Source: Kiritimatiellia bacterium (GTDB lineage: Bacteria; Verrucomicrobiota; Kiritimatiellia; RFP12; UBA1067). From it: a stretch of DNA of 64,000 nt. Location: assembly GCA_045636065.1 (NCBI GenBank), contig JAZTWW010000036.1:5404-69403 (forward strand), written 5' to 3'. How positions within the stretch are numbered: the first letter of the stretch is position 1; every line of letters starts with the position of its first letter. Positions 1 through 63,699 of this stretch are shown here, one piece after another. Made by a program: the position numbers and the translations under genes. Under the pieces are notes generated by a model. That model made no database searches. It was not told where the DNA came from and saw nothing but the letters and a program-made list of their open reading frames with translations.

Positions 1-70
1 CGCAGTGATCCGGAACATGTACGATTCTTTCATGCGGGAATTATACTATATACTGGGGAGTAATGCAAGC

Positions 71-220
71 GCCCATTCCAAGTCCATTCATTGGATTTAT
101 CACTTTTATCGCTTCTGCCCATTCACAGTCCATTCATTGGATTTATCGCTTTTATCGCGTTTATCCCTTTTATCCCTTCCCCTACGAATCCCCCTTCCCC
201 TACGAATCCCCCTTCCTCAT
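71..220 (+). repeat. intergenic repeat element, copy A: 46-nt unit tandemly duplicated (71-116, 117-162), TTTATCC tail, then 18-nt tandem repeat x2.3 (176-220)
   Basis: gcccattccaagtccattcattggatttatcacttttatcgcttct / gcccattcacagtccattcattggatttatcgcttttatcgcgttt, followed by cttcccctacgaatcccc x2. The unit recurs in inverse orientation at 49317-49362. Confidence 0.7.
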
Positions 221-4000: not shown

Positions 4001-4756
4001 TCAAGCGGAAATTTGCGCGCGCGCGAAGGCCGCCGCGACCGCGAGCGCGCTTACGACGTTGAGGGAGTTCTTGAGCCCGTGCGAAGGTATCTCCACCACT
4101 CCGTCCGCCATCGCAAGAACGTCGGGGTCGAGGCCGAAGCGCTCGTTGCCCACTATGAGCGCTGCCGGAAGCGACATTCTCCACTTCGCAACGTCAGTTG
4201 CCCCTTCGGCAGTCTCGAGCGCATACACCTTTACTCCCTCGGCCTTGAACGCGGCTATCCTTTCGCGGACGTCGGCGCAATGCTCCCATCCGACGGATTC
4301 GTCGGCTCCGAGGGCCGTCTTCTTCACCTGCGCGTTCTCCGGCGTAGGGGAGTATCCGCAAAGCACAACCTTCGAGGCTCCGAAGAAATCGGCCGTCCTG
4401 AATATTCCGCCCATGTTGAACGCGCTTCTCACGTTGTCGGCGACGATGTAGAGGGGGATCCTGTCCGCCTTGCCGGGCGTATCGACGCTTCTTATGCCCA
4501 TCTCGGCGTCGGTCACGCGCACCTTCCTGTCGAGGCGCTCAAGGGGAACGAGCGCCGCCTGGATGGAGCGCGCCCCCACGCCCGGCTGGACTAGATGCGC
4601 GAGGGACGCAAGATGCTTCTCTGGGCGCACCCTCAGGAAATCGAACGCTTCCTTGAGCCTTACGGACTCCTCATCCGTCCCAAGCGACGACTCTGCCGCC
4701 CTCACGAGCCTTAGCGCCTCGCGCCAGGCACCCCCCGGGATGTCTTCGCCCTGCAT
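4001..4756 (-). CDS. SpoU/TrmH-family RNA 2'-O-methyltransferase
   Basis: SpoU methylase C-terminal motifs (ALIVGNERFGL, EIPSHGLKNSLNVVSALAV). Start placed at an internal ATG (MQGEDIPGG). Confidence 0.8.
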   Translation of the reverse strand: MQGEDIPGGAWREALRLVRAAESSLGTDEESVRLKEAFDFLRVRPEKHLASLAHLVQPGVGARSIQAALVPLERLDRKVRVTDAEMGIRSVDTPGKADRIPLYIVADNVRSAFNMGGIFRTADFFGASKVVLCGYSPTPENAQVKKTALGADESVGWEHCADVRERIAAFKAEGVKVYALETAEGATDVAKWRMSLPAALIVGNERFGLDPDVLAMADGVVEIPSHGLKNSLNVVSALAVAAAFARAQISA

Positions 4757-11806: not shown

Positions 11807-11835
11807 CTTATGTGCCTTTCGAAAATTGAGCGCGT

Positions 11836-11864
11836 ATTATACATAATTTCGCCGCATTTGTCAA
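11836..11864 (-). promoter_or_regulatory. near-consensus sigma70-type promoter for rpmE: -35 TTGACA, 17-nt spacer, -10 TATAAT
   Basis: Minus strand: TTGACAaatgcggcgaaattatgTATAATacgcgc (TTGACA = plus 11859-11864, TATAAT = plus 11836-11841). About 30 nt upstream of the rpmE ATG. Confidence 0.55.
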
Positions 11865-12000: not shown

Positions 12001-12026
12001 ACTCGTCTGGGTTGCAGACGGCGCGT

Positions 12027-12055
12027 ATTATACCAAATATCGCCTGGACTTGCAA
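12027..12055 (-). promoter_or_regulatory. putative promoter upstream of the tRNA: -35 TTGCAA, 17-nt spacer, extended -10 TGGTATAAT
   Basis: Minus strand: TTGCAAgtccaggcgatattTGGTATAATacgcgc. The -10 is at plus 12027-12032, about 26 nt upstream of the mature tRNA 5' end. Confidence 0.5.
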
Positions 12056-20225: not shown

Positions 20226-20344
20226 AGTCTCTGCTACACAAAAAAAATCTATCCCTCTATCCTCCCAACCGTATCATCTCGACCGTATCACAAGGGTCTG
20301 TCCCTCGCAATTCATCTAATCCTTAACAATTCCACCGACTTTCT

Positions 20345-25468: not shown

Positions 25469-27222
25469 CGCGCCTCCCCGACGAGATGGTAGCCACCAGT
25501 CTTCTTGCTGCCGCGGTGCTCGACCTTTCCGGCCGCGATCAATGCGGCAAGGGCTCGCTCAACAGTGGCCTTGCTCTTGCCAACGCGCAAGACAATCTCC
25601 GGCTTGTTAATTCCCGGTCGCGATTTTATCGCCTCATTTATCGCCTCATTTATCGCCTCAGGGGATTTTATCGCCTCACCCTTTTGGCCAGTTTTTCGAT
25701 AAGGCATCTGCTTGTCGTTACGCGACTGTATGATCTTGGCCTCTCGCAAGGTCGACAAAGCATTGTTGATGGTACGCAAGGCCATCCCCGTCCTCGCGCA
25801 AATCTGCGGAATTGTCACGCTTTTATCGGCAATAAGCTCGTGAAGCACGGTCTCAACATTCGCACGTGCATCCTTGCGAAGCTTTGGAAGACGAGCGAGC
25901 AGTTCCCCGATGTTATCCGCAGCTGTAGTGCCAATTATCGTCCAACCTGTGCCAGATAATCCGTGACCAGTGCCAGTTCTGTCCGAAGCAGTGCCAGTTC
26001 TTGCGGCAACAATGCCATTTCTTTGATCGGGCGTATTGACGCCTGTCCAATCTGGGCGCTTGAAAATGGTGGTGACACAACCGTATTCTTCTTTGACCTT
26101 TGGTACGGGCAACCCCACCCTGACACATTCATTGGCAATCCGAGTAAGCCCGCGTCCCCATGTCTCGATGGATTTGCGCAGATACAGGACGCGCGCGATT
26201 TTCTCATTCCGCGGTTCCGAATGTTGGATTGGCGGTGAATACAATCTGGCGAGGTTGAAATCTGACGGGAACTTCCCGGGGTTCTTGATTTCAACCCGGT
26301 CATCGTAGATGGCGAGGTAAATCGTTTGGCTGCGGTTTTCGTAGCTGCGATGGGCAAAGGCGTTCACCAACGCTTCGCGGAGTGCGTCCGCAGGAATCTC
26401 CAGCTCTTCGTCTCGTTCGATCTTGCCGCTCGTCCATGCCGCCAGATTCAAATGCTTGAAGCAGAAAGCCATCGCAGCGTCTATCATCTTGAAGACATTG
26501 CCCTGCACATGGGAATTGTCGAGGAACACCCGCTGATCAGTTCCCTTGAACCATCCCATCTTAATTTCGAGTTGCGGATAATCGATGCGATCCGCCTTCC
26601 CGAAAAGCACGGCGGCACCATTCAACAGAGTTCCATTCTTCCTCAGCTTGAAATGGTCGAGCAACGAGGCGGCGTTTTCGGTATCGACACTTTCATCAAG
26701 CCGCCCGACCCGCACCGCCTTTCGCGCCGTATCTCGAATGACATCCAAATCAAGATCGTCGAGCGACAGTTCCGGATTCGGCTGATCTTCCCATTCGCTC
26801 CTGAATCCACCCCTCGCAAGGAGCATCCGCTCGTACTCCTCCTGGCTCATTACAGTCGTTGAGGACTGCACACGCTTGTGCGGCTTTCCATCGTAGATAT
26901 AGGGCTTGCGGTTCCCGCCATCGACATGACACACGATGGCCGTATGCGTGTCGTCAATAGGAACATACGAAACCTCAATATCCGCCGCAGGCTCGAACTT
27001 CTGAAATGCCTCGAAAAGATCGCGCTTTGTCGTATCGGCAATCAGCTGTCCTGTCAGTCGGCCCTTGCGTGTCACGCCGAAAACAACCGTGCCTCCATCC
27101 TTGTTTAGAAACGCGCACAAAGTCTCGCAGGCGTCAACGCGCTGTCCGGTCGTTTCCTTGAATTCGACCGTCTCGCCTTCGCCCTGGGCAAGCAGAATTT
27201 GCAGTTCATCTAATGTCTTCAC
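25465..27222 (-). CDS. AlbA_2 (Schlafen-like) + HATPase_c_4 + C-terminal wHTH putative transcriptional regulator
   Basis: N-terminal ...LQILLAQGEGETVEFKETTGQ... signature of the AAA-4/AlbA_2 family. C-terminus has a GT-rich linker, an AINEAINEAIK repeat and two wHTH-like segments. Overlaps hsdM (ATGA) and hsdS (ATGA). Confidence 0.8.
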   Translation of the reverse strand: MKTLDELQILLAQGEGETVEFKETTGQRVDACETLCAFLNKDGGTVVFGVTRKGRLTGQLIADTTKRDLFEAFQKFEPAADIEVSYVPIDDTHTAIVCHVDGGNRKPYIYDGKPHKRVQSSTTVMSQEEYERMLLARGGFRSEWEDQPNPELSLDDLDLDVIRDTARKAVRVGRLDESVDTENAASLLDHFKLRKNGTLLNGAAVLFGKADRIDYPQLEIKMGWFKGTDQRVFLDNSHVQGNVFKMIDAAMAFCFKHLNLAAWTSGKIERDEELEIPADALREALVNAFAHRSYENRSQTIYLAIYDDRVEIKNPGKFPSDFNLARLYSPPIQHSEPRNEKIARVLYLRKSIETWGRGLTRIANECVRVGLPVPKVKEEYGCVTTIFKRPDWTGVNTPDQRNGIVAARTGTASDRTGTGHGLSGTGWTIIGTTAADNIGELLARLPKLRKDARANVETVLHELIADKSVTIPQICARTGMALRTINNALSTLREAKIIQSRNDKQMPYRKTGQKGEAIKSPEAINEAINEAIKSRPGINKPEIVLRVGKSKATVERALAALIAAGKVEHRGSKKTGGYHLVGEAR

Positions 27223-34604: not shown

Positions 34605-34640
34605 TTCCTTCTGGCGAATATTATACCAAATTACGCGCTA
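34605..34640 (-). promoter_or_regulatory. putative operon promoter (extended -10 TTTGGTATAAT) at the right edge of the defence island
   Basis: Minus strand aaTTTGGTATAATattcgccag. The -10 is at plus 34612-34617. It is the first promoter-like element upstream of the co-directional gene string from 34596 down to 20345. Confidence 0.45.
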
Positions 34641-38735: not shown

Positions 38736-40487
38736 TCAGCAGTCCATCTGTTCGAATATCATGCCGCTCACCGGCTGGCCGCCAGGCTGCATGGGATACA
38801 CGTTGGCGCGCGGCTCGACGATCACCTCCACGAGAGACGTCCTGTCGCTCATGATGGCGCTTCTAAGAGCATCATCGAGCTTGGCGGGATCGACAACCCT
38901 TACGGCGTCAGCGCCGTGCGCCTTGGCGAGCATGACGAAATCGGGCCTGTAGTCGTAGTCGAGCTTGCTTTCGTCGATGCGCTCGTTTGCCATGCGCCCC
39001 TTCGCCGCGAGTATGGATCCGGAGTATCTCCTGTTGTAGAAGAGCTCCTGCCACTGGCGGACCATGCCGAGGCACTCGTTGTTGATAATGACGAACGTGA
39101 CGGGAAGCTGGTGCTCGACCGCGACGACGACCTCCTCGAACGTCATCTGCGCACCGCCGTCGCCGCAGATGCAGACTATGCGCTTGTTGCGCCTCGCGAT
39201 CTGCGCGCCGATGGCTGCCGGGAAGCCGAAGCCCATCGTTCCCATGCCGCCCGACGAAAGGAAGTGCCTAGGCTTGTTGTGGCGGAAGAACTGCGCAGCC
39301 CACATCTGGTGCTGCCCGACGTCCGTGACGACTATGGCATGCCCGTCCGTCACGCGGTCCACCGCCTCGACGACGCTCTGCGGCATGATGACGCCCTCGT
39401 GCATCTGGCGGTAGGTGACGGGACGGTCCTTCTTCCACTTGGCGATGCGCTTGAGCCACTCGGTGTGCTTCGCCGGGTGGATGCGCGCGTCGACCGTGGA
39501 TATGACGTCCTTCACGTCGGCGTGGATGGCGAGATACGTCTTGACGTTCTTCCTCAAGTTCGCCTGGTCGCAGTCCACATGGACTATCTTCGCGTTGGGG
39601 GCGTACAGCTCCTTCTTGCCTGTCACGCGGTCGGAGAAGCGGCAGCCGAGGGCAAGGACGAGATCGGCCTCGTTGATGGCGTAGTTTGCGGCGCACGTTC
39701 CGTGCATGCCGGCCATCCTGAGCGAAAGCGGGTCGTGCTCGTTGAAGGCGCCAAGGCCCATAAGCGTCGTGGCGACGGGGATCTCCGCCTTGTGCGCGAG
39801 ATCGGAGACGTCGCGCGCAGCGCCAGCGGCTATGACTCCGCCGCCGACGTAGAGTACGGGCCTCTTGGCCTCGTTGATGAGCTTCGCGAGCTTCGTGATC
39901 TCCTGCGTTGACGCCACGCACTCCGGGTGGTAGGCGCGCATGGTGACGCGCTCGGGATAGACCGCCTTCGTAAGCTGCTGCTGGACGTTCTTCGGTATGT
40001 CGATCGCGACCGGCCCGGGCTTACCGTGCGTTGCGATGTAGAACGCCTGCGCGACGATGTTGGGGATCTCGTCCGCAGAATGGACAAGGAAGCTGTGCTT
40101 CGTCACGGCGCGCGAAATGCCCACCATGTCGACCTCCTGGAAGGCGTCCGTGCCGATCTGCGTAAGGGGCACCTGCCCCGTGATGCAGATGAGCGGCACG
40201 CCGTCGGAGTTTGCCGTGGCAAGGCCCGTTATCGTGTTCGTCGCTCCCGGGCCGCTCGTGACGATGCAGACGCCCGGCTTTCCGCACGCGCGCGCATAGC
40301 CGTCGGCCATATGGATGCTGCCCTGCTCGTGGCGCCCGAGGATGAAGGCGAAGGGCGCATCGGCAAGCCTGTCGAACATGTCGAGGGCGCTGCCCCCCGG
40401 GTATCCGAACACCACCTGCACGCCCGCCTTCACGAGCGAGTCAACGAGCGCCTGAGCGCCTGTAACTTCTTTTCTTCCTGTCATCAC
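38736..40487 (-). CDS. ilvB: acetolactate synthase large subunit (ThDP-dependent)
   Basis: Full-length ALS (VFGYPGGSALD, ThDP-binding GDGGAQMTFEE...NN). Confidence 0.93.
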   Translation of the reverse strand: MMTGRKEVTGAQALVDSLVKAGVQVVFGYPGGSALDMFDRLADAPFAFILGRHEQGSIHMADGYARACGKPGVCIVTSGPGATNTITGLATANSDGVPLICITGQVPLTQIGTDAFQEVDMVGISRAVTKHSFLVHSADEIPNIVAQAFYIATHGKPGPVAIDIPKNVQQQLTKAVYPERVTMRAYHPECVASTQEITKLAKLINEAKRPVLYVGGGVIAAGAARDVSDLAHKAEIPVATTLMGLGAFNEHDPLSLRMAGMHGTCAANYAINEADLVLALGCRFSDRVTGKKELYAPNAKIVHVDCDQANLRKNVKTYLAIHADVKDVISTVDARIHPAKHTEWLKRIAKWKKDRPVTYRQMHEGVIMPQSVVEAVDRVTDGHAIVVTDVGQHQMWAAQFFRHNKPRHFLSSGGMGTMGFGFPAAIGAQIARRNKRIVCICGDGGAQMTFEEVVVAVEHQLPVTFVIINNECLGMVRQWQELFYNRRYSGSILAAKGRMANERIDESKLDYDYRPDFVMLAKAHGADAVRVVDPAKLDDALRSAIMSDRTSLVEVIVEPRANVYPMQPGGQPVSGMIFEQMDC

Positions 40488-47927: not shown

Positions 47928-49223
47928 TCACTTGACGGACGAGACCACGAACTCGATGGCCTTGGTGCGCTTTATCTGGGTCGCAAGCATATGCTCTTCG
48001 CCGTTCGCGCGGACGTTCTTGAGAGCCACCTCGGGGGTTACGGGGTTCTTGGCGGCCTTGGCGATCTCGCCGGCCTCCTTGAGAAGCTCCTCCTCGGAAA
48101 CCGTGATGGACTCGGCCTCGGCGATGGCGTCGAGGATGTAGCCCATGCGCACCTGGCTCTTGGCGCTCTCCCTGCAATCCTCGAGGATCTTGTCGCGGTT
48201 CTCCTCCAGATAGGAGGTGGAAAGGCCCATTCCGCCGACGCGCTCGGCGAGGCGCTGGAGGTTGAGCTGGGTCTGGTTGTACACGCGGCTCGGGGGAAGC
48301 TCGAAGTCGCTGCCGGCGAGGAGCGCTTCCGCTACCTGGCGGCGGAGGTCATCGTCCGCAATGCGCTTCGCGTCCGCCTCAAGGCGCTCGCGGAAGCTGG
48401 CCTTGAGCGCATCGAGCGACTCGGCCTTGGCGGCCTCGAGGAACGCCGCGTCATCGGGTATGCGACGGACGCGGAAGCTCTTGACGGTGACGTCGTAGCT
48501 TCCCGTCTTGCCTATAAGCTCAGCGGGGGCGGGAGCGGCGAACGTGACGGCGATGCCGGTTTTAGACTCGCCGGCCTTCATGCCCTTGACGGCCTCAAGG
48601 ACTTCGGGGATGAAGCGGCCTGTCTCGACCTGCGTCCAGAAATCGGTGCCCGAACCGACGGCCTTCGCGTCTGCGGAGATCTCCTCGACCGGCTTGCCGT
48701 CGACCGTGCCCTTGAAATCGATGCAGAGGAAGTCGCCCTCGGAGACGGTGTCGCCCTCCTTGGCGTCCTCGAACTTGGCGAAGGCCTTGCGGTACGCCTC
48801 AACGCGCTCCTCGACCTCGGAGTCGGCGACCGTCGTGGGCTTGCGCTCGACCGCGATGCCCTTGTACTTGGGAAGCTTCACCTCGGGGGCGACCTCGACG
48901 ACGGCGGTGAACTCGACGCCCGTCTCAGGCGAGAACTTGACGTCCTTCGCGCCGATGTCGGCGATGGGCTTAAGTCCCGACTCCTTGACGGCCTTGGGGC
49001 AAAGCTCCCTCAGGCAGGCGTTGGCGGCCTCTTCCTGGATGCGGTCGGCGAACTGCTCCTTGACCAGCTGTACGGGAGCCTTCCCCTTGCGGAAACCGCG
49101 GATTTCGCCGTTTCTCACGAAAAGATTCACCACCTTGTTGTAATAAGGCTTTACTTCCTCGGCGTCCGCGACGACCTTGAGGTTTATGACGCATGCACTC
49201 TCGGCATTCTTATCGATCTTCAT
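47928..49223 (-). CDS. tig: trigger factor
   Basis: Full-length Tig (N-terminal ribosome-binding region, FKBP-like PPIase region [18 protein letters not shown]). tig-clpP-clpX gene order. Confidence 0.9.
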
Positions 49224-49249: not shown

Positions 49250-49295
49250 AACGGCATAGTATACCATATTCTCTCAAATTCCGCAACGCCGCCGG
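49250..49295 (-). promoter_or_regulatory. putative tig promoter (-35 TTGCGG, 17-nt spacer, extended -10 TGGTATACT)
   Basis: Minus strand TTGCGGaatttgagagaataTGGTATACTatgccg. The -10 is at plus 49258-49263, about 35 nt upstream of the tig ATG. Confidence 0.5.
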
Positions 49296-49299
49296 AAAA

Positions 49300-49440
49300 C
49301 AAGCCGCTTTGGAAAGGGATAGAAGGGATCTACGCGATAAAAGCGATAAATCCAATGAATGGACTTGGAATGGGCAAAAGGGATACAAGCGATAAATCGG
49401 TCGCATAAAGGCAGCGGTTTGGTGTGAAGCACAAGCGGAG
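49300..49440 (-). repeat. intergenic repeat element, copy B (module X + module Y + tail) in the tig / W-repeat-gene divergent region
   Basis: Minus-strand reading: cctccgcttgtgcttcacaccaaaccgctgcctttatgcgac (module X, shared with 63554-63596), then gcccattccaagtccattcattggatttatcgcttttatcgcg (module Y, shared with 71-162), then atcccttctatccctttcc. Confidence 0.7.
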
Positions 49441-49517
49441 GTGCGCAATTCGCCATGCTTCGCGATTGACTCCAACCGTGGGATTTGGTAAAATTCGCGG
49501 CGAAAGGAACAAGGGGC

Positions 49518-51728
49518 ATGAAGAGTCAGGTGGAATCTTCGGCGGCCGGCACGGCCGCTGCATGGGTGCGCAAGGCCGTGGCGGTTGCGGCGATAGCGCT
49601 TTTTGCGGCCGGGGCGAAGGCGGACGACAGGGTGAACCTGTGGCCGCTTTACTACCGCGACGCCGACGGTTTCTCCGCAATCTGGCCGATAGTTTCCGTC
49701 TCCGGCAACCATTATGCCGTAAGGCCGCTCTATTCATGCTACTACGGAACTGAGCATAACGTCCTCTGGCCGATCGCACAGTTCGATACCGCCACCGGTG
49801 ACAACCGCATCTTCCCGGTATACTGGGGCAAGCGGTATTTCTTTGTATTCCCCGTCTTTGGCTGGAGCAAGGGGCTTGTGTCCGCCGGCGTCCTGTACTG
49901 GCACTACTGGGACAGGCACAAGACGGTAGACACGCTCTTCCCCCTCTGGTGGTGGGAAAGCAGAAACGATGGAAAGGACAGGACGTTCTGGTTCGCGGCG
50001 GGGCTTGGCGGCGGCAAGTGGAGCCGGGATTCGGGCATTTGGGAGCACTGGCTGCATCCGTTCTACTACTACGACCCCGATACGTTCATGTCGCTCCTGT
50101 ACTTCGACGACAGGTCCAGCTCGCTGCGTGTAAGGGCCATCCCGCTTCTGATGTCGGCATATTTGAACGGCCACGGGAAGGACGGCTTTTTCTCGCCATA
50201 CTTCACAAGATGGACATCGAGGGATGACGGTTCGACGCACACAAGGCTTCTCATGGGTCTTGCGGGATGGAACAGCCCCAAAGAGGGGGAGATGACGTTC
50301 TGGAGCGTGCCTTTCTTCTATACGAGCCCCGATTCCTTCGTCTCGCCGCTTTGGATATCTGAAAACGGCGGCGACGAGAGGTATAAGCTGGCCCCGCTTC
50401 TCCTCTCGGGATGGTACGGCAATCCATCGACAGGCGAATCGCATTGGCGCTTCCTCCTTGGGATGGCTGGAACCGACAGGGATGCTAAGGGGAATTTCGA
50501 ATCGTGGTGCTTCCCCGCGTACTACAAGGGCCGCGACATGTTCATAACGCCGCTCTACGGCGAATCGGGGGACTCGCGCTGGCTCTTCCCGGTATGGTAC
50601 GACGACAGCGATACGTTCGCCTCGGCAGCATGGTGCCACAAGCGAGGCGAGGACGGCTCCATCGACTGGTGGATGTGTCCGCCTCTTCTGTCCCGCTATT
50701 CGTACGACCGCGAAAGATCCGTCTCAAGGTTTACGGCGCTTCTCGGCCTCGCCGGCTGCGAAAGCGGCAAAGACGGGCTTGAAAGCCACTGGTTCATGCC
50801 GTTCTACTACCATGACGCCAACATGACAATGTACACTCCTCTCGCCGGCAGGCGCGGCGACTCGAGATGGATCGCGCCTCTTTACTACACCGACGAGACG
50901 TATTTCCTTTCGGCTCTATGGTGCAGCGAATCACGCCTTGGCGGCAAGTCGTTTGAATGGTGCGTGCCGCCTCTTTTGACGTGGTACTCGCGCAACGGCG
51001 ACTTCACGGAATGGGGCACGTACCTCATATACAGGGCGAACTCCAAGGGCGAATTCAAGTCGATACCCTACACCCATCGCCTGAGCGGCGGGTACGAAGA
51101 GTCTCTTTCCATGCTCGACTCCGCCACGCTCGACGACTCTATAAAGATCTGGGAGGAGCCGGTAACTAACAGGGATGGGGTAGTGTCGATGCGCCGCACG
51201 GCGGATAGGGTCAACCAGTACGACAAGCGCACTTTCATGCTCCTTTCCGACATGGACAGGGAAGTTCTCGGGTATCTTACCGGCGGGCATGACGATAATG
51301 GTTGCACCAACTATCTCCTGAAGGCGGCTTCAAAGGCAGGAAACTACCTTGTCGTGAACAGGGGAACGGAAAGGAAGGTCACCTACTCGTCCATAACGAG
51401 GGAGAAGACCGGCGATGTCGAAAAGGACGATTTGACTGTTCTCCTTTCGCTTCTCTACTGGTCCGAGTGCAGATACGACAGGATGACCGGCTCGACAAGT
51501 TCCGAAAGAAGCCTCCTCTGGCGCGTATGGCGCAGGAAAGAGAAGGACGGGGATGTCTCGGTGGACGCCATCCCCGGCTTCACGTACGATTCGAGGAAGG
51601 ACGGCTACAGGAAGACGTCGCTGCTCTGGCGGCTCTTCCGCTACGAGAACGATCCCGAAAAAGGGACGGCCGTGGACCTGCTGTTCATTCCCGTATGGCG
51701 CGCCTCCCGCCCCTCAACCGGCGACTGA
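49518..51728 (+). CDS. secreted W/Y/P-rich tandem-repeat protein (about 45-50-aa units, beta-propeller-like?)
   Basis: Signal peptide (MKSQV...AVAVAAIALFAAGAKA). Repeats such as FWSVPFFYTSPDSFVSPLWISE..., WCFPAYYKGRDMFITPLYGESGDSRWLFPVWYDDSDTF..., HWFMPFYYHDANMTMYTPLAGRRGDSRWIAPLYYTDETYF.... The only sizeable + strand gene in the window. Start set at the ATG 49518 with an upstream purine-rich RBS. Confidence 0.55.
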   Translation: MKSQVESSAAGTAAAWVRKAVAVAAIALFAAGAKADDRVNLWPLYYRDADGFSAIWPIVSVSGNHYAVRPLYSCYYGTEHNVLWPIAQFDTATGDNRIFPVYWGKRYFFVFPVFGWSKGLVSAGVLYWHYWDRHKTVDTLFPLWWWESRNDGKDRTFWFAAGLGGGKWSRDSGIWEHWLHPFYYYDPDTFMSLLYFDDRSSSLRVRAIPLLMSAYLNGHGKDGFFSPYFTRWTSRDDGSTHTRLLMGLAGWNSPKEGEMTFWSVPFFYTSPDSFVSPLWISENGGDERYKLAPLLLSGWYGNPSTGESHWRFLLGMAGTDRDAKGNFESWCFPAYYKGRDMFITPLYGESGDSRWLFPVWYDDSDTFASAAWCHKRGEDGSIDWWMCPPLLSRYSYDRERSVSRFTALLGLAGCESGKDGLESHWFMPFYYHDANMTMYTPLAGRRGDSRWIAPLYYTDETYFLSALWCSESRLGGKSFEWCVPPLLTWYSRNGDFTEWGTYLIYRANSKGEFKSIPYTHRLSGGYEESLSMLDSATLDDSIKIWEEPVTNRDGVVSMRRTADRVNQYDKRTFMLLSDMDREVLGYLTGGHDDNGCTNYLLKAASKAGNYLVVNRGTERKVTYSSITREKTGDVEKDDLTVLLSLLYWSECRYDRMTGSTSSERSLLWRVWRRKEKDGDVSVDAIPGFTYDSRKDGYRKTSLLWRLFRYENDPEKGTAVDLLFIPVWRASRPSTGD

Positions 51729-51788
51729 CGCCGGAAATTCGCCTAAGGGATGCGGGTTGGCGCGCCAGATGGGATTATCGAAACCAGA

Positions 51789-52928
51789 TCAGAATTCGTA
51801 GCCGAGGGCGAGGCGAAGGACGAGATCGGGCTTTTCGATTGAGCCGTTTACGGATTCGGAATGGATGTCCATGTCCTTCTGGCAGAAGCGGGCAAGGACA
51901 TCGAGCGAAATGTCGAAGCTGCAGATCCTGACGGTCGAGCCAAGACCGGCTATGCCGTAGCAGCGCCACTCGTCGAAAGTCTTGTGCGAGACATACCTTC
52001 CGCCCTCGCCGAACGAGGCGGAGACGGAATAGTCGAACTCGCTTCTCGTGACACCGAGGCCCAAGGTTCCGGTAAGGCGCCAGAAGTCCGTAACCTCCCA
52101 CCACGGCTTGAGCATGAAGGCAAATTCCCACTCTTCGTAGTCGCCTGTGGCGTTTATGGAATAATGGCCTGTATACGAACTGTAGTCGATCGTACCGGCG
52201 CCAAAGTCGCTGTAGTCGAGAACAGGACCGAATCCGCCGGAGCCGCCGGCACCGTAATACCCGCCGGACTCCTGAAGATAGGGAGAGGTGAGAACAGCAT
52301 AGTTGCTTGAGCCCGCGCTCGGCGTATAGACGTAGCTGGAACCGTCCATGTACGTTCCTGACGCCTTCGCCTTGAAGCAGCCGTTCCTCTTCATCCACGA
52401 CACCCCGAAGGCGAAATCAACACCGAATCCGCTTTCGTGCGCATACAAGGTGCGCGCGAGCTCAAGCGATGCGCCGTAGACGCTGGCGCTGTCGGAGGCG
52501 CTTCCGGAGATGCCGCCAAGCTGCGCGGAGTTGAGCGTCATCGCGCCGGTCGTGCGGTCAAGCCCGCTGACGGGAATGCGCCAGTTCTGCGTATACGGTG
52601 CCGACATGTTTCCGCTTGAAGGGTCGATGAACGCCCCGCCGAGGAACGAAACCCTCTCGCCGTTCGCCAGACGCTCCGAGATGTCGGATGGCGAACCGAT
52701 CGCCTGCGACGTGGCCGTCGAGTACGACGATCTCGGCGCGGAAAAGCCCATCTTTGTCTTGAGCCCGAAGCCCATGTTACCGCCGGCCGAAACGCGCCAT
52801 GGTCCGAAGCCGCGCCTCTCGCGCGAGACAAGCCCCTCGGAAGGCGTACCGGCCTCGCCGACCTCCACGTCCGCGAAGGCAAATGCCGCCGAGATTGCGG
52901 CAATGGCCGCAAATGCGAATCTGTTCAT
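51789..52928 (-). CDS. outer-membrane beta-barrel protein (C-terminal Phe)
   Basis: Signal peptide MNRFAFAAIAAISAAFAFA. Alternating amphipathic beta-strands with Gly/Ser/Tyr-rich loops. Ends ...LRLALGYEF, a typical OMP C-terminal signature. Start overlaps the stop of the upstream giant gene. Confidence 0.65.
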   Translation of the reverse strand: MNRFAFAAIAAISAAFAFADVEVGEAGTPSEGLVSRERRGFGPWRVSAGGNMGFGLKTKMGFSAPRSSYSTATSQAIGSPSDISERLANGERVSFLGGAFIDPSSGNMSAPYTQNWRIPVSGLDRTTGAMTLNSAQLGGISGSASDSASVYGASLELARTLYAHESGFGVDFAFGVSWMKRNGCFKAKASGTYMDGSSYVYTPSAGSSNYAVLTSPYLQESGGYYGAGGSGGFGPVLDYSDFGAGTIDYSSYTGHYSINATGDYEEWEFAFMLKPWWEVTDFWRLTGTLGLGVTRSEFDYSVSASFGEGGRYVSHKTFDEWRCYGIAGLGSTVRICSFDISLDVLARFCQKDMDIHSESVNGSIEKPDLVLRLALGYEF

Positions 52929-52942
52929 CTTATACCCCCTTC

Positions 52943-55900
52943 TCACTTGACGCTGTCGGCGATCGAAAGCTTCACCTTGAAGAACGAATAGCCCTCAGGG
53001 ACTTCAGCCGAGAAGCTGCCGTCTTCATCGCACTCCACAGTCGAGATTTCGGCAAACTCCTCTCCAAGCGACTTTGCACCCCAAAGTACGATGGAGGACC
53101 CCGCGCCGAGCGAACCGCGCTCGGAGCCGGCGCCAATCTCGACCGTACCGCTTATGGTGCCGTCCTCAACCAAGAAGTCCGCGAGCTTCAGATACGGCTC
53201 GCTGCTCTCCGTGACGGCTGCGCCGACGGCAAGCGATGCGTTCAGGTTCGCGACTGCAAGCGGCTTCGACGCGGACTTGAGCGAGACTGCGGAGAGGGAA
53301 TTTAGAAGCGGCGTGTTGGCGACGACCTCCACGAAGCTTGTGCATTCGCACGATTCATACCGCACGTACGCGACAAGGTTGTCAAGCTCGGGAACGTCCT
53401 TCGGGTTTCTCGGCCAGTACGACGGCGCATAGAGGAGTATCTCCGAAAGCGCTGCGTTGACCCAGACGGAATCGAACCAGGCCGCTCCCCATACGCCGGA
53501 ATCGGGGCCTTCCAGGCCGTTCTCGGCGAAACGGTCCTTGAGCGGCACCTTGAAGAATTCGACGCCGTCAATGGTCTCCACTGTGGAAACGGCCTTGTTG
53601 GCCTTGGCGTCCCAGAGCTGGATGCCGTCGCGCTTCTCGAGGAGGAAGCACATGTTGGTGACGGTGCCCGCCCAGCCGTCGCCGTCCTTTACCTCAAGGG
53701 CGATCTCCGGAACGTACATGCCGGAGAGCCAGTCAACGTTCCATTCCAGGGAGTCTAGCGTCACCACGGCGCCATCCCAGACGAGAGCGTACGTCGAAAG
53801 CTTCGCGCACCTTATGACGAGTTCGCCGGTCTCTTCGTTCACATTGAAGCATTCACCAAGTTCGTTCGCATTTGCGACGCCCTCGGGAAGGACCGCCACC
53901 GACCCGGTGGCAGGATCGCCCTCGACCTCCTCGTGGTAGCGGGCAACCCTGAAGTTGCGGCGGCCGCCAAGGGTGAAAGGCATAACCGACTCTACGAGCC
54001 CGTTGAAGAGCGAAAGGTCGTGGATGTTCGTGCTGAAGACGCCGTCCACGTACTTCGCGAGCGTGAAGTCCAGCGGCTTGACGTGACCCGCAGTAACCGC
54101 ATCCCTGATGCGCGAATACCCGCGTGTCGTGTCGGCGGCCGGCATGTCCTTCACCGTGAAGCGGATCTCGATCGATTTCCCGCGCTCGCCAGGGTTCACG
54201 GCCTTTCTGGCGATATCGTCAATGCCGCCTGCAACGGCGGGATAGTCGCCCGCGGCGGAGTTGTCCACGACGGAAGATCTGTCCCCGCCCGGATCCTCGA
54301 TCGTCTTCTCGCCCTTGCGCTCCGTATCGGGATCGTTATCGGCGAAAACGAGCGTCGTTATCGTCGTCACGTCGCCCTTGCCGCCGACGGCCTGGACGAC
54401 GACATCGTACGCGCCGGCGGACGGCAGTTCGCATACGTAGCGCCACGGACTCGACGACCCGAACACGCGCCCTTGGATGGCATCTTCGATCGTGGAGCCG
54501 ACGCCCCATGCGACGATGGAGGATATGCTCTCGAACTCCTCGCCCTCTATATCGCCGGAGACGACCACGTTTGTCGTCCAGACCGCGAAGAGGTCGTTCG
54601 TCACACCAAGCTCGAACTCGTCCGACACGAACTGCCTGTCGGCGAAGTCAAGATCGGCAAGGCCCTCCGCTTCCTCGTTGAAGCTCCAGCCGAGGTGGTT
54701 GAAGTTCTTCTTCTTGAAGGCGCAATCGCTCAGGCGCTGAGCGGGGGTGACAAAGCGCATCTCGACGTCCATCTCGCCGGAATCGGAGCCGTTGCCAAGG
54801 TACCTTATCCAGTAGAAGTCCACGTCAATCTCGAGGATGACCGTGATCGTGGCCGGCTTAAGGCCAATCATGTCATCCTCCCAGCACTTCCCTTCAAGAG
54901 TGATCGTGCGGACAATCTCCCTGGAGCCGGAGCTGCACGCCGCTTCAATGTCCGCCCTTGTGAACGGAACCATCCAAGAGACGCCCGTCATGTACGTCTG
55001 GCACTTGAGCTTCCTCAAGCGGAAGAACTCGCCGGCATCGGCCATAAGCCCCCACTCCTCGGCTTCGCCAGCCAGTATCTCAACTGCCGTGAAGGTCTTG
55101 TCGGTCGTCGATATCGTGACTGCCGCGTGCGCGGGGTCGGTGAATCTCGGCGTATGGATGATCTGTTCGACCATATGCGGCCATGGCACGCATAGCGGGA
55201 AGAAGAGATCCCCATCCTTTTCGATGAGCGCACACGAATCCATGCGAAGCCTGATTGTGGCCTCGGGGAACGGGAAACAGCTTTCAGGGGCCTTTTCTTC
55301 AATGACGAGCGGGATGGATGCCGTATACGTGCCGCCAAGGAGGATGCCGTCCTTCTGCACGGTCACGCTTGCCGTGTATTCGCCCGGATCGATCGGCGCC
55401 TCCGCGCTCTCCGTCCCGTCGGACGCCGTGTATACGATGTCGGAGACCGTTGCGCCCGTATTTATCACGAAAGTATTGAGGTTCGACACCGCAACTTCAA
55501 GCGGGGTCGCATCGAAGACCTTGCGGCCGCCCTCGACGGACGGGACGAGCTCTATGCCCATGGGAGAAGCGTTGCATTTGATTGAACGCAGCACGTTGCC
55601 GGGGCAGGTTGCAGTCACCTTCGCGCCATCCTCCTCGAAGCTCCATATGTGCAGGGAATGGCCTTCCGTCTCGATGGGAAGCTCCTTCTCGTTGATCCTG
55701 TACGTACCCTTGACAACGAGGTTGCAGCCCTCGGCAGTAGTCACTGTGACCGAAGCGGTATAGAGGCCGGCCTCGACGGGGACGCCGTCAAAAGGCTCGC
55801 CGTCCTTCGTGTAGGTGATCTCTCCAAGCTCAGCGCCCGTAATGGTCTCGAACGCGCCGGCGCTCACGAAGAGGTTGAAGATGTCCGTTATGATCTCGGA

Positions 55901-58756
55901 GAAACCCTCGTCCTCGGAAAGCCTGGTAAGAAGCTCAAGTATGCCGGCCGCATCGAGGTTTGAGAGGTCGCTTTCGAGGATCGCACCCGCCATGTCGAGA
56001 AGATTCGCGTTGCTGAGTACGGACGCCACGGTCGACATGTTTATAGCATAGAACTCGGCTGGATGCTCGTTGCGGTCGTAGTCGACTCTGATCTGCGGCA
56101 GAAGGCCGAACTTGCGGATGCCGACGACGCCTACGAGCTGACGGCCGGAGCAGTGCGAGATCTGCAAAGTGCCGTCCGCAAAGACCTTTGTGCAAGTCGC
56201 CACAAGGACGCGGTTCGCGAGCGAAACAAGCCTGTAGTGGTGTTCGTGCTTCTCGACGCACCAGTAGCTGCCCCTGCGCACGATGTCGTATCCCTCGGCG
56301 ATGAAGGATTCGTCGGGCTTGACGGAGAAGCGCCCGCCGCTGATGGATACGCTTCCGCCTTCGTTGCGGATCGTTCCGGTGAAAGTGCCGCCCTCGATGA
56401 CGAGGTCGCCCGTATTCACTATAACGGTATCGTCAGAAGATCCGGGGTTGGCCGAGACCTTGCCGGTGGAACCGGCGCTCGAATCCTTTATGGTGAGTTT
56501 GCCGTTGTTCTGGAAGAGGGGGCCGTCCTGAACGGCCGTCACCGTGAAGCCCGCGAGATCGTACGTCTTGCGGCCGCACTGGAGGTTCAATATGCCATAC
56601 CTCTCGGGCGTAATGTAAGTCTTGGCGGCGGTGTAGCTCTTTCCGGCGGAGATCTCCATCGCATCGCCCGTGGCGCGCTCCAGATAGGTCGCGGCATCCT
56701 TGACGTGTATGCCGTCCATGCTCGCCTCGCCGGCCAGGATTTCAAGGCCTTCGAGCCTAAGTGTCCAGCTCTCAGCCTCCCCTTCCTCGGGGACCGGCTC
56801 CGTCACCACGGCATAAGCCGTATATCTGCCGGGTTCAACCGGGGCCGATTCAAGGGTGGCACCGGCTTCATCCAGATATCCCACCTCGCCGATCGTAGCG
56901 CCCGTAAGCGCGAATTTCTCAGCTCCTTCAAGGATGGCTTCAGCCGGAACGCCGTCGCGGTAGTGGCCCTCGGCATACGCCTCGTTACGCGAATCCTTGG
57001 ATACGATCGACAGGTCGAGCGATCCCTCGGTATACGCAAGGAAGCATCCAGGAGCCGCGCAGGACGCCGTGAGCGTAACGCCGTCGTCGGAAAGAGAATA
57101 GCTCCAGTCGTGGGTGTGCTGGGGATAGACCTGCTCGCCATCCCCGTTCAAAAGGAAGATGCTGTCCAGGCCGAGGCTTACGGTGAATTCCGTATCCTTG
57201 AGGCCCTGGACGTCTCCTTGCGTTTCATCGCCCCAGGCGACGCTTCCGCAGACGATCGAGAACTCGAGATTCTCCGCGCCTGATTCCACCGCGGCCGCCA
57301 CATCATCGGCAAAGATGGATACGGTCCATGTCAGGGTATCGAAATATGTGTACGACACCGGATTTATCAAAAAGCCGTCGATCTCGTAGTAGGTGGCCTG
57401 GTTTGTCGTTGCGGAAAGCCCGTACCATTCGCCGTCGAGGATCTCGTTGCCGTACGCTACCTCATCCTCCCCCACCGCTACAGCGGCATGTTTTGCATCC
57501 GTGTACTGGACGCGGGTCGCGACCTGCTGGAAGAAATATGTATCGTACTCGGTGACTTCATGCGGCCAGCGGATCTCGACGGCGGCCTCCCAGCGCTCGC
57601 CGAACTCGTCGTTCTTGTATACGAGCAGAACGGAATCGGTGATGTCGAGGCGGCGGCTATTGGCAGGATCGATCGTTCCATACGCGGGATCGCCTGAGCG
57701 TATGCTCATCGCATCTTCGGCGAACTCGCCCGTGGGTTCGACTATCTTCCATGTTGCGCTTGCCGAACCGGCATAGTTTCCCGTTCCGTTTATGGTCACG
57801 GTGTATTCGCCAACTGTAGAGGCCGTAAAGACGCTATCCTCAGAAACCGTGTAGTCGGTCCCCTCCTGAAGGGTGGCGTTCCCAAGCGTGACGCTTGAAA
57901 TCTCGATCTGGATGTCGCAGTCGCGCACTATGACCTCCGTCGCCGAGAGTGTGATCGCGGCGTCGGTTATCTGGGTAGGCTCATTGAACACAAGCTTCCA
58001 TACGTCGCCATCCTTGACGGCCGAGAAGTTGTCGGGGTATCCGACAGGCTCCACGAAGAACTCCATGCCCTTTTCGCCCATTGCCGCGATGACGCCCGCC
58101 GCCACGGCAAGCTCCATGTCGCCGTACACCTTGCCGTCGACGAGCGCAAGCGCGGGATACCAGATTTTTCCGTTGCCGTCCTTGAGGACCGTTGTCTTCG
58201 GGACCGTTATCGTGTACGTATCGCCGCCTACGGTGAGCGTTGCGACATAGTCCTTGCCCTCCAGCGAGAGCGCATGCATCGTCTCCGGCGTAACCCACAC
58301 GTTCCAGTCCGTATACTTCATGTAGGATGTGGTGCCGCCAAGCTGGAACTCGTTCTTGATTCCGCTCCCATCGGGCGAATTCTCGACCATGATGCCAATA
58401 ATGCTCCTGGCGACTGCATAGTCATCGACCGATCTGCCGGCGTTGTCGCTGAAGGCCGCGTGCGTATCGGCGGTTTTGGTGCCGGTGTACTTTATGTTCA
58501 GAATGGTACCGGTATAGGAGAGCGCCCATGTACGCCTTAAGCCGGCATACCAGCCTTCCTCCTCGCGGTTTAGGCTGTCGTTGGACGATGGCGACATGTA
58601 GACGAGCTCATTGGCCGTCCAATCGTTTCCATTTGCCGTTAGCGCCCCTGTCGCTGCAACAACCGAGTCGGTAGTCACGTCGACGGCAAACGCCGGGATG
58701 GCGCATGCGAGCATAAACAAAGGCACAATAAACCGTTTGCAGCTGCATTTAACCAT
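52943..58756 (-). CDS. giant secreted/surface protein (~1,937 aa; Ig-like/beta-rich repeats, adhesin-like)
   Basis: Signal peptide (KRFIVPLFMLACAIPAFA). Long T/S/G/V/D/E-rich beta-type sequence with no catalytic motifs. Start set at the ATG 58756 (GAGGTG RBS). The track start at 58786 is a GTG inside an 18-nt tandem duplication. The 3' end overlaps the OMP gene start (ATGA). Confidence 0.7.
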   Translation of the reverse strand: MVKCSCKRFIVPLFMLACAIPAFAVDVTTDSVVAATGALTANGNDWTANELVYMSPSSNDSLNREEEGWYAGLRRTWALSYTGTILNIKYTGTKTADTHAAFSDNAGRSVDDYAVARSIIGIMVENSPDGSGIKNEFQLGGTTSYMKYTDWNVWVTPETMHALSLEGKDYVATLTVGGDTYTITVPKTTVLKDGNGKIWYPALALVDGKVYGDMELAVAAGVIAAMGEKGMEFFVEPVGYPDNFSAVKDGDVWKLVFNEPTQITDAAITLSATEVIVRDCDIQIEISSVTLGNATLQEGTDYTVSEDSVFTASTVGEYTVTINGTGNYAGSASATWKIVEPTGEFAEDAMSIRSGDPAYGTIDPANSRRLDITDSVLLVYKNDEFGERWEAAVEIRWPHEVTEYDTYFFQQVATRVQYTDAKHAAVAVGEDEVAYGNEILDGEWYGLSATTNQATYYEIDGFLINPVSYTYFDTLTWTVSIFADDVAAAVESGAENLEFSIVCGSVAWGDETQGDVQGLKDTEFTVSLGLDSIFLLNGDGEQVYPQHTHDWSYSLSDDGVTLTASCAAPGCFLAYTEGSLDLSIVSKDSRNEAYAEGHYRDGVPAEAILEGAEKFALTGATIGEVGYLDEAGATLESAPVEPGRYTAYAVVTEPVPEEGEAESWTLRLEGLEILAGEASMDGIHVKDAATYLERATGDAMEISAGKSYTAAKTYITPERYGILNLQCGRKTYDLAGFTVTAVQDGPLFQNNGKLTIKDSSAGSTGKVSANPGSSDDTVIVNTGDLVIEGGTFTGTIRNEGGSVSISGGRFSVKPDESFIAEGYDIVRRGSYWCVEKHEHHYRLVSLANRVLVATCTKVFADGTLQISHCSGRQLVGVVGIRKFGLLPQIRVDYDRNEHPAEFYAINMSTVASVLSNANLLDMAGAILESDLSNLDAAGILELLTRLSEDEGFSEIITDIFNLFVSAGAFETITGAELGEITYTKDGEPFDGVPVEAGLYTASVTVTTAEGCNLVVKGTYRINEKELPIETEGHSLHIWSFEEDGAKVTATCPGNVLRSIKCNASPMGIELVPSVEGGRKVFDATPLEVAVSNLNTFVINTGATVSDIVYTASDGTESAEAPIDPGEYTASVTVQKDGILLGGTYTASIPLVIEEKAPESCFPFPEATIRLRMDSCALIEKDGDLFFPLCVPWPHMVEQIIHTPRFTDPAHAAVTISTTDKTFTAVEILAGEAEEWGLMADAGEFFRLRKLKCQTYMTGVSWMVPFTRADIEAACSSGSREIVRTITLEGKCWEDDMIGLKPATITVILEIDVDFYWIRYLGNGSDSGEMDVEMRFVTPAQRLSDCAFKKKNFNHLGWSFNEEAEGLADLDFADRQFVSDEFELGVTNDLFAVWTTNVVVSGDIEGEEFESISSIVAWGVGSTIEDAIQGRVFGSSSPWRYVCELPSAGAYDVVVQAVGGKGDVTTITTLVFADNDPDTERKGEKTIEDPGGDRSSVVDNSAAGDYPAVAGGIDDIARKAVNPGERGKSIEIRFTVKDMPAADTTRGYSRIRDAVTAGHVKPLDFTLAKYVDGVFSTNIHDLSLFNGLVESVMPFTLGGRRNFRVARYHEEVEGDPATGSVAVLPEGVANANELGECFNVNEETGELVIRCAKLSTYALVWDGAVVTLDSLEWNVDWLSGMYVPEIALEVKDGDGWAGTVTNMCFLLEKRDGIQLWDAKANKAVSTVETIDGVEFFKVPLKDRFAENGLEGPDSGVWGAAWFDSVWVNAALSEILLYAPSYWPRNPKDVPELDNLVAYVRYESCECTSFVEVVANTPLLNSLSAVSLKSASKPLAVANLNASLAVGAAVTESSEPYLKLADFLVEDGTISGTVEIGAGSERGSLGAGSSIVLWGAKSLGEEFAEISTVECDEDGSFSAEVPEGYSFFKVKLSIADSVK

Positions 58757-58791
58757 AACACACCTCACTTCTTTAACACACCTCACTTCTT
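58756..58791 (-). repeat. perfect 18-nt tandem duplication (aagaagtgaggtgtgtta x2 on the minus strand) covering the RBS and start of the giant gene
   Basis: Plus strand taacacacctcacttctt at 58756-58773 and again at 58774-58791. Confidence 0.75.
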
Positions 58792-58842
58792 TGCAATGTC
58801 GCGCACATCACACGGAAACATGGATAAAGTGGGCGCAACCAT

Positions 58843-63360: not shown

Positions 63361-63551
63361 GGAACCGCAACAGTTTGCCGCTCCGCAAGTGGCGCAGCTC
63401 GCTTCATATGGGCCGCGGGGAGAGGCGCAGTTTTATTTAGCACGCTGCGCAATGCTCCTCGTCCGTGACCCTCACCTCCGGTTGTTTTTCGCGCTCCCAT
63501 CCCTTAAGGACGATTGGGTCGCGCGAAAAACAATCCTCGGTGTTTCCCGGA

Positions 63552-63600
63552 CGAGGACATTGCCTCCGCTTGCGTTGCACACCAAACTGCTGCCTTTATG
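63552..63600 (+). repeat. intergenic repeat element, copy C (module X only)
   Basis: cctccgcttgcgttgcacaccaaactgctgcctttatgcgac, about 88% identical to the module in copy B. Lies in the 370-nt gap upstream of the exosortase gene. Confidence 0.6.
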
Positions 63601-63699
63601 CGACTTGGGGAGAAGCGGCAGCACCCTTGCTCCGCTTTGGTGGGAGGGAGGCATGGGAGCGGAAGCGAGGGGATGCCGAGTGACAGTTACCCAGCTTTT

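Follow-up and report, generated by a model that had tools for sequence, protein, structure and literature searches.

A lineage-restricted mosaic family of short intergenic repeats in an uncultured Kiritimatiellia bacterium

What are the short repeats that recur between the genes of an uncultured Kiritimatiellia bacterium, and how might they have come to lie there? The question is raised by a stretch of 64,000 nt from contig JAZTWW010000036.1 (assembly GCA_045636065.1, positions 5,404 to 69,403 of the forward strand), here called the window. Three of its non-coding loci, A at the left end, B upstream of tig and C upstream of an exosortase gene, have short repeat modules in common. These are X (42 nt), Y (46 nt) and arrays of the 9-mer GSGATAAAW; locus A has an 18-mer in addition. 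The repeats are a real family that is restricted to this lineage and mosaic in the order and orientation of its modules. With moderate confidence, X, Y, the 9-mers and the 18-mer are regarded as a minisatellite-like family of intergenic repeats. Real as the finding is, it is of an ordinary kind. For a few model pathogens, small interspersed repeats have been catalogued well. The Kiritimatiellota are known chiefly from metagenomes, and we know of no small interspersed repeats described for them.

The family is defined by similarity between the three loci (Table 1). An 88-nt block of locus A (94-181) corresponds, inverted, to 49311-49398 of locus B with 89% identity (blastn E 5e-23), and part of the first Y unit (71-112) agrees with 49334-49375 in 41 of 42 nt (98%). 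X of locus B recurs inverted at locus C over all 42 nt (90% identity, blastn E 4e-9). From the 9-mers through one Y unit to the 9-mer end of a second, A and B align collinearly. Past this point, the rest of Y at locus A stands opposite an unrelated 42-nt sequence, X, at locus B. The make-up of the loci is Y+Y+9-mers+18-mers at A, X+Y'+Y+9-mers at B (Y' is a partial Y unit) and X plus a hairpin at C. Blastn and nhmmer searches with X, Y and the A/B block found no further X or Y copy in the window. The original prediction had described modular, intergenic and imperfectly conserved repeats, which agrees with the values for the 88-nt block, X and the Y tandem (92% matches). It had also read copy A as a tandem Y plus tail in the opposite orientation to B, as repeat search, TRF and alignment now confirm. 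Its account of copy B as X, Y and tail holds with the refinement that about 1.5 Y units are present, one full and one partial of 24 nt. Copy C does contain X, at 63563-63604 instead of 63552-63600.

The modules are repeated within themselves. TRF reports nested tandem periods of 46 nt (1.9 copies), 9 nt (4.1 copies) and 18 nt (2.4 copies), and the Y tandem at 71-162 has a score of 155. Y is thus a unit in the range of 40-100 nt that stands in tandem at several dispersed intergenic loci, as in minisatellites of the MIRU type: 1.9-fold at A, 1.5-fold at B and with at least two units on each of two other contigs (see below). The 20-nt core of Y, GTCCATTCATTGGATTTATC, is the same in all three Y units (A1, A2 and B; 0 expected by chance) and contains the direct repeat CCATTC[C/A]-N4-CCATTCA with a period of 11 bp. 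In addition, Y has an imperfect palindrome, AAATCCA-N5-TGGACTT, the source of its sole, weak hairpin. GSGATAAAW occurs 13 times in the window versus 1.84 times expected (7-fold), a number reached in none of 100 shuffles. Four of the 13 matches (25624-25674; GCGATAAAW) are unrelated to the repeats, as they encode an AINEAINEAIK linker. Identity between copies is 89-98% across whole blocks, spacers included. The Y unit of locus B has the sequence of unit A1 and the flanks of unit A2; an A1-like sequence in an A2-like position suggests exchange between copies. The GC content is 40-43% in Y, 46-47% in the arrays and 57% in X, compared to 59% in the window, so that Y and the arrays are richer in AT than the host as expected of MITEs (miniature inverted-repeat transposable elements). 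All modules are strand-asymmetric with ~70% purines on one strand (67-73% in Y). Furthermore, they constitute an extragenic mosaic of several motif types, a property of REP/BIME elements.

Table 1. Repeat modules and adjoining features at the three loci (window coordinates).
Locus	Feature	Position	Strand	Basis and remarks
A	Promoter-like site: TTGCAT 63-68, 17-nt spacer, TATAAT 40-45	40..68	-	Read from sequence; ATG at 31-33
A	Y unit A1, 46 nt	71..116	-	Purine-rich strand reads GCGATAAAAGTGATAAATCCAATGAATGGACTTGGAATGGGC; repeat search, TRF period 46, nhmmer E 2e-14
A	Y unit A2, 46 nt	117..162	-	In tandem with A1, 89% identity to A1
A	9-mer array, 4.1 copies	142..178	-	TTTATCSCT on + strand, GSGATAAAW on - strand; TRF, pattern search
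A	18-nt perfect tandem CCCTTCCCCTACGAATCC x 2.4	174..216	-	TRF score 86, 100% matches; locus A only
B	tig promoter: TTGCGG 49281-49286, 17-nt spacer, TATACT 49258-49263, upstream TG	49258..49286	-	Conserved in L005, L007
B	9-mer array GGGATAGAA GGGATCTAC GCGATAAAA GCGATAAAT	49316..49351	+	Pattern search
B	Y unit B, 46 nt	49330..49375	+	Repeat search; nhmmer E 1.4e-15
B	Partial Y unit Y' (24-nt 9-mer end, AAAAGGGATACAAGCGATAAATCG)	49376..49399	+	Directly abuts X; alignment
B	X module copy B, 42 nt	49400..49441	+	Repeat search, blastn, nhmmer
B	Promoter-like site of 736-aa gene: TTGACT, 17-nt spacer, TAAAAT, TG-extended	49466..49494	+	Promoter scan, 10/12 matches
C	Near-perfect hairpin, ~108 nt	63455..63562	-	Abuts X copy C; fold dG -80.7 kcal/mol, z -5.8
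C	X module copy C	63563..63604	-	Repeat search, blastn, nhmmer

The family extends beyond the window. As Y is open in five of its six reading frames, gene callers set spurious open reading frames (ORFs) on the repeats. A collection of 1.84 billion representative proteins was therefore searched for repeat read-through, with an 81-aa ORF spanning X and Y as query. Two matches, P0124 and P0127, are spurious ORFs on other ENA metagenome contigs of 1,166 and 7,951 nt, respectively, and read through Y arrays. P0124 has the order Y'-Y-9-mers, followed by a new tandem module Z (GELQATLGVADGALQATLGV) and a second Y in a different frame. P0127 begins with a Y tail and Z and continues with a block that is collinear with the whole array of locus A (62% amino-acid identity, E 1e-13). 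About 25 residues further on, it reads through the last 10 nt of X, the hairpin of locus C and the DNA upstream of the exosortase gene (80% over 65 residues, E 4e-27). X itself is mostly unrecognisable in this ORF. P0124 and P0127 also align collinearly (E 1e-21), and the Y arrays of P0127 have the opposite orientation to the downstream gene than those at locus A and at the 736-aa gene. These arrangements imply that outside the window, too, the family is a mosaic of varying order and orientation, and that it includes further modules. The original prediction had named as its refutation that there be no copies elsewhere in the genome and no conservation in relatives; this does not apply, as the contigs of P0124 and P0127 carry related copies. 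Other searches yielded no relatives. The 20-nt core of Y had only a chance match within an Anaerolineales coding sequence among GTDB genomes and JGI metagenomes, scans of IMG/VR for the cores of X and Y and for the double 9-mer had chance or coding matches only, and blastn against phages and plasmids found no match. In a word-indexed protein search, the six-frame translations of the repeats in concatenated form returned nothing at E<=1, low-complexity words probably saturating the search, and none of nine spurious repeat ORFs was found by exact look-up in the protein collection.

The repeats are not an assembly artefact. All three loci were recovered, wholly or partly, in independent assemblies. 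Three independent ENA assemblies (L001/L119 and L120) have the same locus B but for one single-nucleotide polymorphism. Of locus A, the tail with 18-mers and 9-mers is present in Logan contig L014 from another sample, where the 18-mer array has three substitutions; this contig stops within the repeat. A variant copy of X at locus C was found in L009 and L010. Directly beside this X, the sequence differs between strains with 99% identity elsewhere: in L009 and L010, an unrelated 343-nt segment takes the place of the 108-nt hairpin. The contig encoding P0127, which is more distant, has the same hairpin next to a Y-Y array. Neither the hairpin nor the segment replacing it has an Rfam match. The 343-nt segment (L009, 2214-2552) is also strongly folding and contains a 21-nt direct repeat, AAGGCTGGCTTGAGATTAGCC, twice.

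In related genomes, matching intergenic regions are without X and Y. This applies to L005 and L006 (89% identity in Tig) and L007 and L008 (68%) as well as to L015 (78% identity in the DUF4230 protein) and L016-L018 (64%). Likewise, nhmmer models of X and Y found no match in ~75 kb of DNA from relatives, and no comparable dispersed repeats were seen in ~50 kb of it. All three loci coincide with differences in synteny. In L005 to L008, the genes for exosortase, EpsI, GT4 and radical SAM proteins, tig, clpP and clpX are contiguous. In the window genome, a 9.6-kb insertion (49518-58786) parts the radical-SAM gene from tig. This insertion is lineage-specific and codes for a 1937-aa surface protein, a 379-aa protein and a 736-aa protein, in none of which a significant Pfam domain was found. 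Locus B is found at its edge on the tig side, and ~20 nt beyond the repeat, homology to L005 resumes. At locus C, a 239-aa gene together with X is inserted between the NUDIX and exosortase genes. Both are missing there in L007, and the region upstream of the exosortase gene in L005 is likewise without them. The DUF4230 locus has different neighbours in the relatives with 78% and 64% identity. At all these junctions, the intergenic DNA is too diverged or rearranged to compare filled and empty sites nucleotide by nucleotide. Some observations concern the insertion itself. The 1937-aa and 736-aa proteins have N-termini that resemble signal peptides, and by eye the 379-aa protein looks like an outer-membrane protein. 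In the 1937-aa surface-protein gene, the region of the ribosome-binding site and start codon is spanned by a perfect 18-nt tandem, TAACACACCTCACTTCTT x 2.1 at 58756-58792.

From these data, a minisatellite-like mosaic can be outlined, for whose copying mechanism we infer the following. Modules would expand locally by head-to-tail duplication, i.e. by slippage, to yield the periods of 9, 18 and 46 nt. Blocks of ~40-150 nt would then be copied from one intergenic region to another, with gene conversion and ectopic or illegitimate recombination as the means instead of transposition. They would build up in spacer DNA upstream of promoters where close relatives differ in gene content: at the edge of the 9.6-kb surface-protein insertion by tig, in the turnover-prone upstream region of the exosortase operon and at the rearranged DUF4230 locus. 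Slippage is suggested by the nested tandem periods, and recombination is favoured over transposition by the missing hallmarks of MITEs (see below). Near-identity at the level of blocks including spacers, absence at orthologous promoters, variable order and orientation, and the location at sites of differing gene content argue for recent copying over conserved regulatory sites. Any effect on neighbouring genes would be indirect, through promoter context, possible protein binding or homology for recombination, and a dedicated function is not assumed. Several points weigh against this proposal. Only two loci per module are visible within the window, and no pair of filled and empty sites is available at nucleotide resolution. 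The copy number of Y at locus B does not vary among the three assemblies compared (the window, L001/L119 and L120), in contrast to MIRU-type loci, and an actively slipping minisatellite might show some variation. The invariant Y core, its 11-bp direct repeat and the imperfect palindrome could reflect selection for protein binding. A location between divergent promoters would also be expected of a regulatory array.

The last two points lead to the main rival, which the original prediction had offered beside REP/MITE-like elements and according to which the repeats are cis-regulatory arrays. Here, Y, the 9-mers and X would be putative sites for one or more lineage-specific DNA-binding proteins, e.g. 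a winged-helix response regulator or a nucleoid-associated protein. Such a factor might co-regulate envelope and surface genes, namely those for the 736-aa secreted protein, Tig, the exosortase operon and the product encoded to the left of locus A. We consider this rather unlikely, although the layout of the loci is in keeping with it. Between tig (47928-49223, minus strand) and the 736-aa gene (49518-51728, plus strand) there is a gap of 295 nt, which is occupied by locus B; its modules take up the ~180 nt between the -35 boxes of these divergent promoters. For the 736-aa gene, the promoter-like site starts 25 nt downstream of X, and homology to L005 and L007 on the tig side begins at ~49290. 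The gene beside locus B is tig, as originally predicted, with clpP and clpX downstream, and Tig homologues assign the genome to Kiritimatiellia. At locus A, the end of Y is 2 nt from the -35 box of the promoter-like site serving the gene that runs off the left edge of the window. This site was overlooked by the automatic promoter scan because its -35 hexamer matches the consensus in only three of six positions. At locus C, X follows the stop codon of the 239-aa membrane-protein gene, which is specific to the lineage, at 95 nt and precedes by ~235 nt the start codon of the exosortase gene (product on record: 295 aa), the first in the exosortase-EpsI-GT4-radical-SAM operon. A Y array is also found upstream of the exosortase operon in the relative on whose contig P0127 is encoded. 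Moreover, the core is invariant in 3/3 units with variable flanks, the spacing of the 7-nt direct repeat at 11 bp would correspond to the geometry of OmpR/PhoB-type sites, and the modules are not RNA-like. Against regulatory arrays, the modules are absent from the same promoters of relatives with 89, 78, 68 and 64% protein identity, though these promoters are conserved. Furthermore, identity extends over the spacers besides the motifs, which indicates recent duplication over selection for motifs. Relative to the promoter, the modules stand anywhere from -38 to beyond -200. A fixed polarity (9-mers, Y, promoter, gene) was considered and rejected: it holds at locus A and for the 736-aa gene and fails for tig and the exosortase locus of P0127, so that the orientation to the downstream gene is divided 2 versus 2. 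The 9-mers were also rejected as a conserved feature of the tig promoter, since the CGTAAAA and CGATAAAAT motifs of L005 are A-rich, oppositely oriented and non-homologous. Readings of X as a sigma-54 or ECF promoter were discarded by eye because of wrong spacing.

A mobile origin is quite unlikely. The modules would be remnants or non-autonomous derivatives of mobile elements, either MITE-like or ends of transposons or integrative elements with subterminal recombinase-binding repeats, left at the borders of inserted accessory DNA. Their restriction to one lineage, their AT-richness and the occurrence of near-identical copies at three synteny breakpoints are consistent with this explanation. 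The same is true for the distance of <= ~20 nt between locus B and the tig-side edge of the 9.6-kb insertion, the strain-specific replacement directly beside X and the MITE-like appearance of the adjoining 108-nt hairpin; the gene left of locus A, which runs off the edge of the window and whose product begins with MKESYMFRITA, could encode a transposase. By contrast, terminal inverted repeats do not bound any copy; at locus B, only a chance-level match of 7-8 nt (CCGCTTTG / CAAGCGG) was found. X and Y are without strong fold, and no palindromic unit forming a stem-loop as in REP/BIME elements was detected in either. Ten flanking and other proteins were scanned without a single transposase or integrase match. 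The original label 'REP/MITE-like' could therefore not be upheld in the strict sense. In addition, searches of the phage, plasmid and IMG/VR collections yielded no relatives, X at locus C is ~210 nt away from the insertion junction and a target-site duplication is not definable. The modules were also considered as the ends of the 9.6-kb insertion and rejected in this role, as its far edge has neither X nor Y.

It is a long shot that the modules serve as 'landing pads'. They would belong to an undescribed class of mosaic repeats, non-palindromic and strand-asymmetric, that a recombinase or homologous recombination might use to swap accessory envelope genes and intergenic cassettes in Kiritimatiellia. 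This would account for the differences in gene content at each copy and for the change in sequence beside X in 99%-identical strains.

Transcribed RNA elements are very improbable. 3'- or 5'-untranslated-region modules, small RNAs or a purine-rich sponge of the CsrB/Rsm type with GGA motifs could explain the strong strand asymmetry, and at A and C the modules follow a gene without a predicted terminator, the sense strand there being the purine-rich one. Locus A contains 10 GGA motifs in 146 nt. The observed counts of 10 and 7 were reached by 211 and 494 of 2000 shuffles, respectively. Since GGA is not enriched over base composition and no hairpins present it, the idea of a CsrA sponge was rejected. 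No Rfam match was obtained at the gathering threshold or at E<=5 on the three loci. Folding of X is no better than that of shuffled sequences (z +0.67 to -0.56 over both strands), and the same applies to Y and the arrays on the purine-rich strand (z -0.17 to -0.73). The pyrimidine-rich strand has a modest excess, with z -1.79 for Y and about -2.7 (to -2.75) for 71-162 and 49305-49445, which results mostly from a 7-bp hairpin, one per Y unit. A conserved or highly base-paired structure, as MITEs would have, was not found in X or Y. Moreover, promoter and terminator scans revealed no promoter or terminator of the modules' own, and both orientations to neighbouring genes are represented among the modules. 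Hence, the earlier view that they are not a structured RNA is sustained, with at most a modest excess for Y. Two side observations concern the strands of locus A. The minus strand of the 18-mer array, which terminates at the stop codon of the DUF4230 gene (217-747), has GGGGG and GGGG runs 2-7 nt apart and could form a G-quadruplex. On the same strand, the TATAAT hexamer is only 6 nt ahead of the ATG of the left-edge gene (31-45), so that its mRNA may be leaderless.

A cluster of weak DnaA boxes near the origin, acting as a titration or regulatory site, is effectively refuted at the sequence level: the 9-mers contain TTATC and were originally called only loosely DnaA-box-like, rightly so, as the boxes of this lineage read TTATC[C/A/G]ACA (in L007) and the repeat 9-mers TTATC[G/C/A]C[T/G]T, positions 7-9 never match, X, Y and the 9-mers contain no DnaA box, and the sole TTATCNACA match of the window, at 39080 outside the repeats, equals chance expectation. 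By synteny with L007, dnaA, dnaN and an oriC-like cluster of boxes probably lie a few kb away from the right end of the window, which had spoken for this possibility. L007 has five to six TGTTGATAA / TTATCAACA boxes between rlmL and a helix-turn-helix gene (4250-4350) as well as TTATCCACA and TTATCGACA boxes between dnaA and dnaN (1585-1863). Both clusters are probably oriC elements.

Nearly all genes of the window are on the minus strand, and a few of its other short repeats deserve mention. The AINEAINEAIK linker is encoded by a 12-nt tandem, GAGGCGATAAAT x 3-4 (25625-25674), in the gene of an SLFN_AlbA_2/HATPase_c_4/winged helix-turn-helix protein. This gene adjoins genes read by eye as type I restriction-modification genes in a low-GC3 island at ~24.2-32.9 kb. 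The 12-nt tandem and the intergenic 9-mers share the 8-mer GCGATAAA, probably by chance. At 20240-20300, a low-GC stretch with a small antitoxin-like ORF has the short direct repeats GGATAGAGGGATAGA and ACCGTATCA x 2 next to this ORF. Their similarity to the GGGATAGA 9-mers is only weak, and a relationship is improbable. The extended -10 motif TTTGGTATAAT occurs on the minus strand at 11830-11853, 12021-12044 and 34614-34637, where it flanks tRNA-Met and lies upstream of another gene. A -10 box of the TG-extended type is also present at the promoters of tig, the exosortase gene and the 736-aa gene.

A definition of this repeat family would be of practical use. It explains assembly breaks and spurious small ORFs in these metagenome-assembled genomes and offers markers for strain typing. 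In addition, it marks hot spots of gene turnover at envelope loci that encode the exosortase and large surface proteins. If the modules did bind a regulator or guide recombination, they would provide a first handle on regulation or genome plasticity in an uncultured lineage.

How do the repeats compare with known systems? OmpR/PhoB-type sites and plasmid iterons would be functional analogues only. In common are short direct repeats at the helical period (CCATTCM-N4-CCATTCA, 11 bp) and contiguous 9-mer arrays upstream of promoters. Unlike such sites, the repeats are not conserved at orthologous promoters, and the 9-bp period is non-helical. The bacterial interspersed mosaic elements (BIMEs) of enterobacteria, which are built on REP or palindromic units, are similarly extragenic mosaics of several short motif types in variable arrangement. 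Their unit is an imperfect palindrome of ~35-40 nt in alternating orientation, whereas X and Y are non-palindromic and strand-asymmetric with at most the weak 7-bp hairpin of Y.

BOX elements of Streptococcus pneumoniae have a boxB unit of ~45 nt. As in the window, they consist of distinct short modules, one of which is present in variable tandem (boxA-boxB(n)-boxC; PMC3049150); for Y, there are 1.5-2 units. Both have open frames on both strands, on which gene callers set spurious ORFs, and both lie near promoters. By contrast, BOX has terminal inverted repeats in boxA and boxC, target-site duplications and a stable stem-loop. Its boxA and boxC termini are fixed, whereas constant terminal modules are lacking here and the orientation of Y to its neighbours varies by locus. 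The host phyla are unrelated, and the likeness is one of architecture.

Neisserial intergenic mosaic elements (NIMEs) are concentrated around genes for surface proteins, where they may favour recombination and the turnover of genes. A comparable context is found here, with modules beside a lineage-specific surface-protein insertion and in the turnover-prone region upstream of the exosortase gene. The variable blocks of NIMEs are bounded by ~20-bp dRS3 inverted repeats that also serve as phage integration targets, whereas no bounding repeat was seen in the window. As composite repeats, NIMEs measure 70-200 bp (PMC3049150). MIRUs of Mycobacterium tuberculosis have units of tens of nt, arranged head-to-tail at several dispersed, mostly intergenic loci (PMC3635867), and this description also applies here. 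They differ in lying inside operons with a copy number that varies between strains, while the repeats described here occupy promoter regions and are unchanged at locus B in three assemblies. BOX, BIME and NIME are all composite intergenic repeats (PMC3049150). The defining features of these three and of MIRU were looked for and not found in X and Y, and the relationship is therefore one of analogy and not of membership. In their architecture, the modules of this Kiritimatiellia lineage are closest to BOX, BIME and NIME elements and to minisatellites of the MIRU type.

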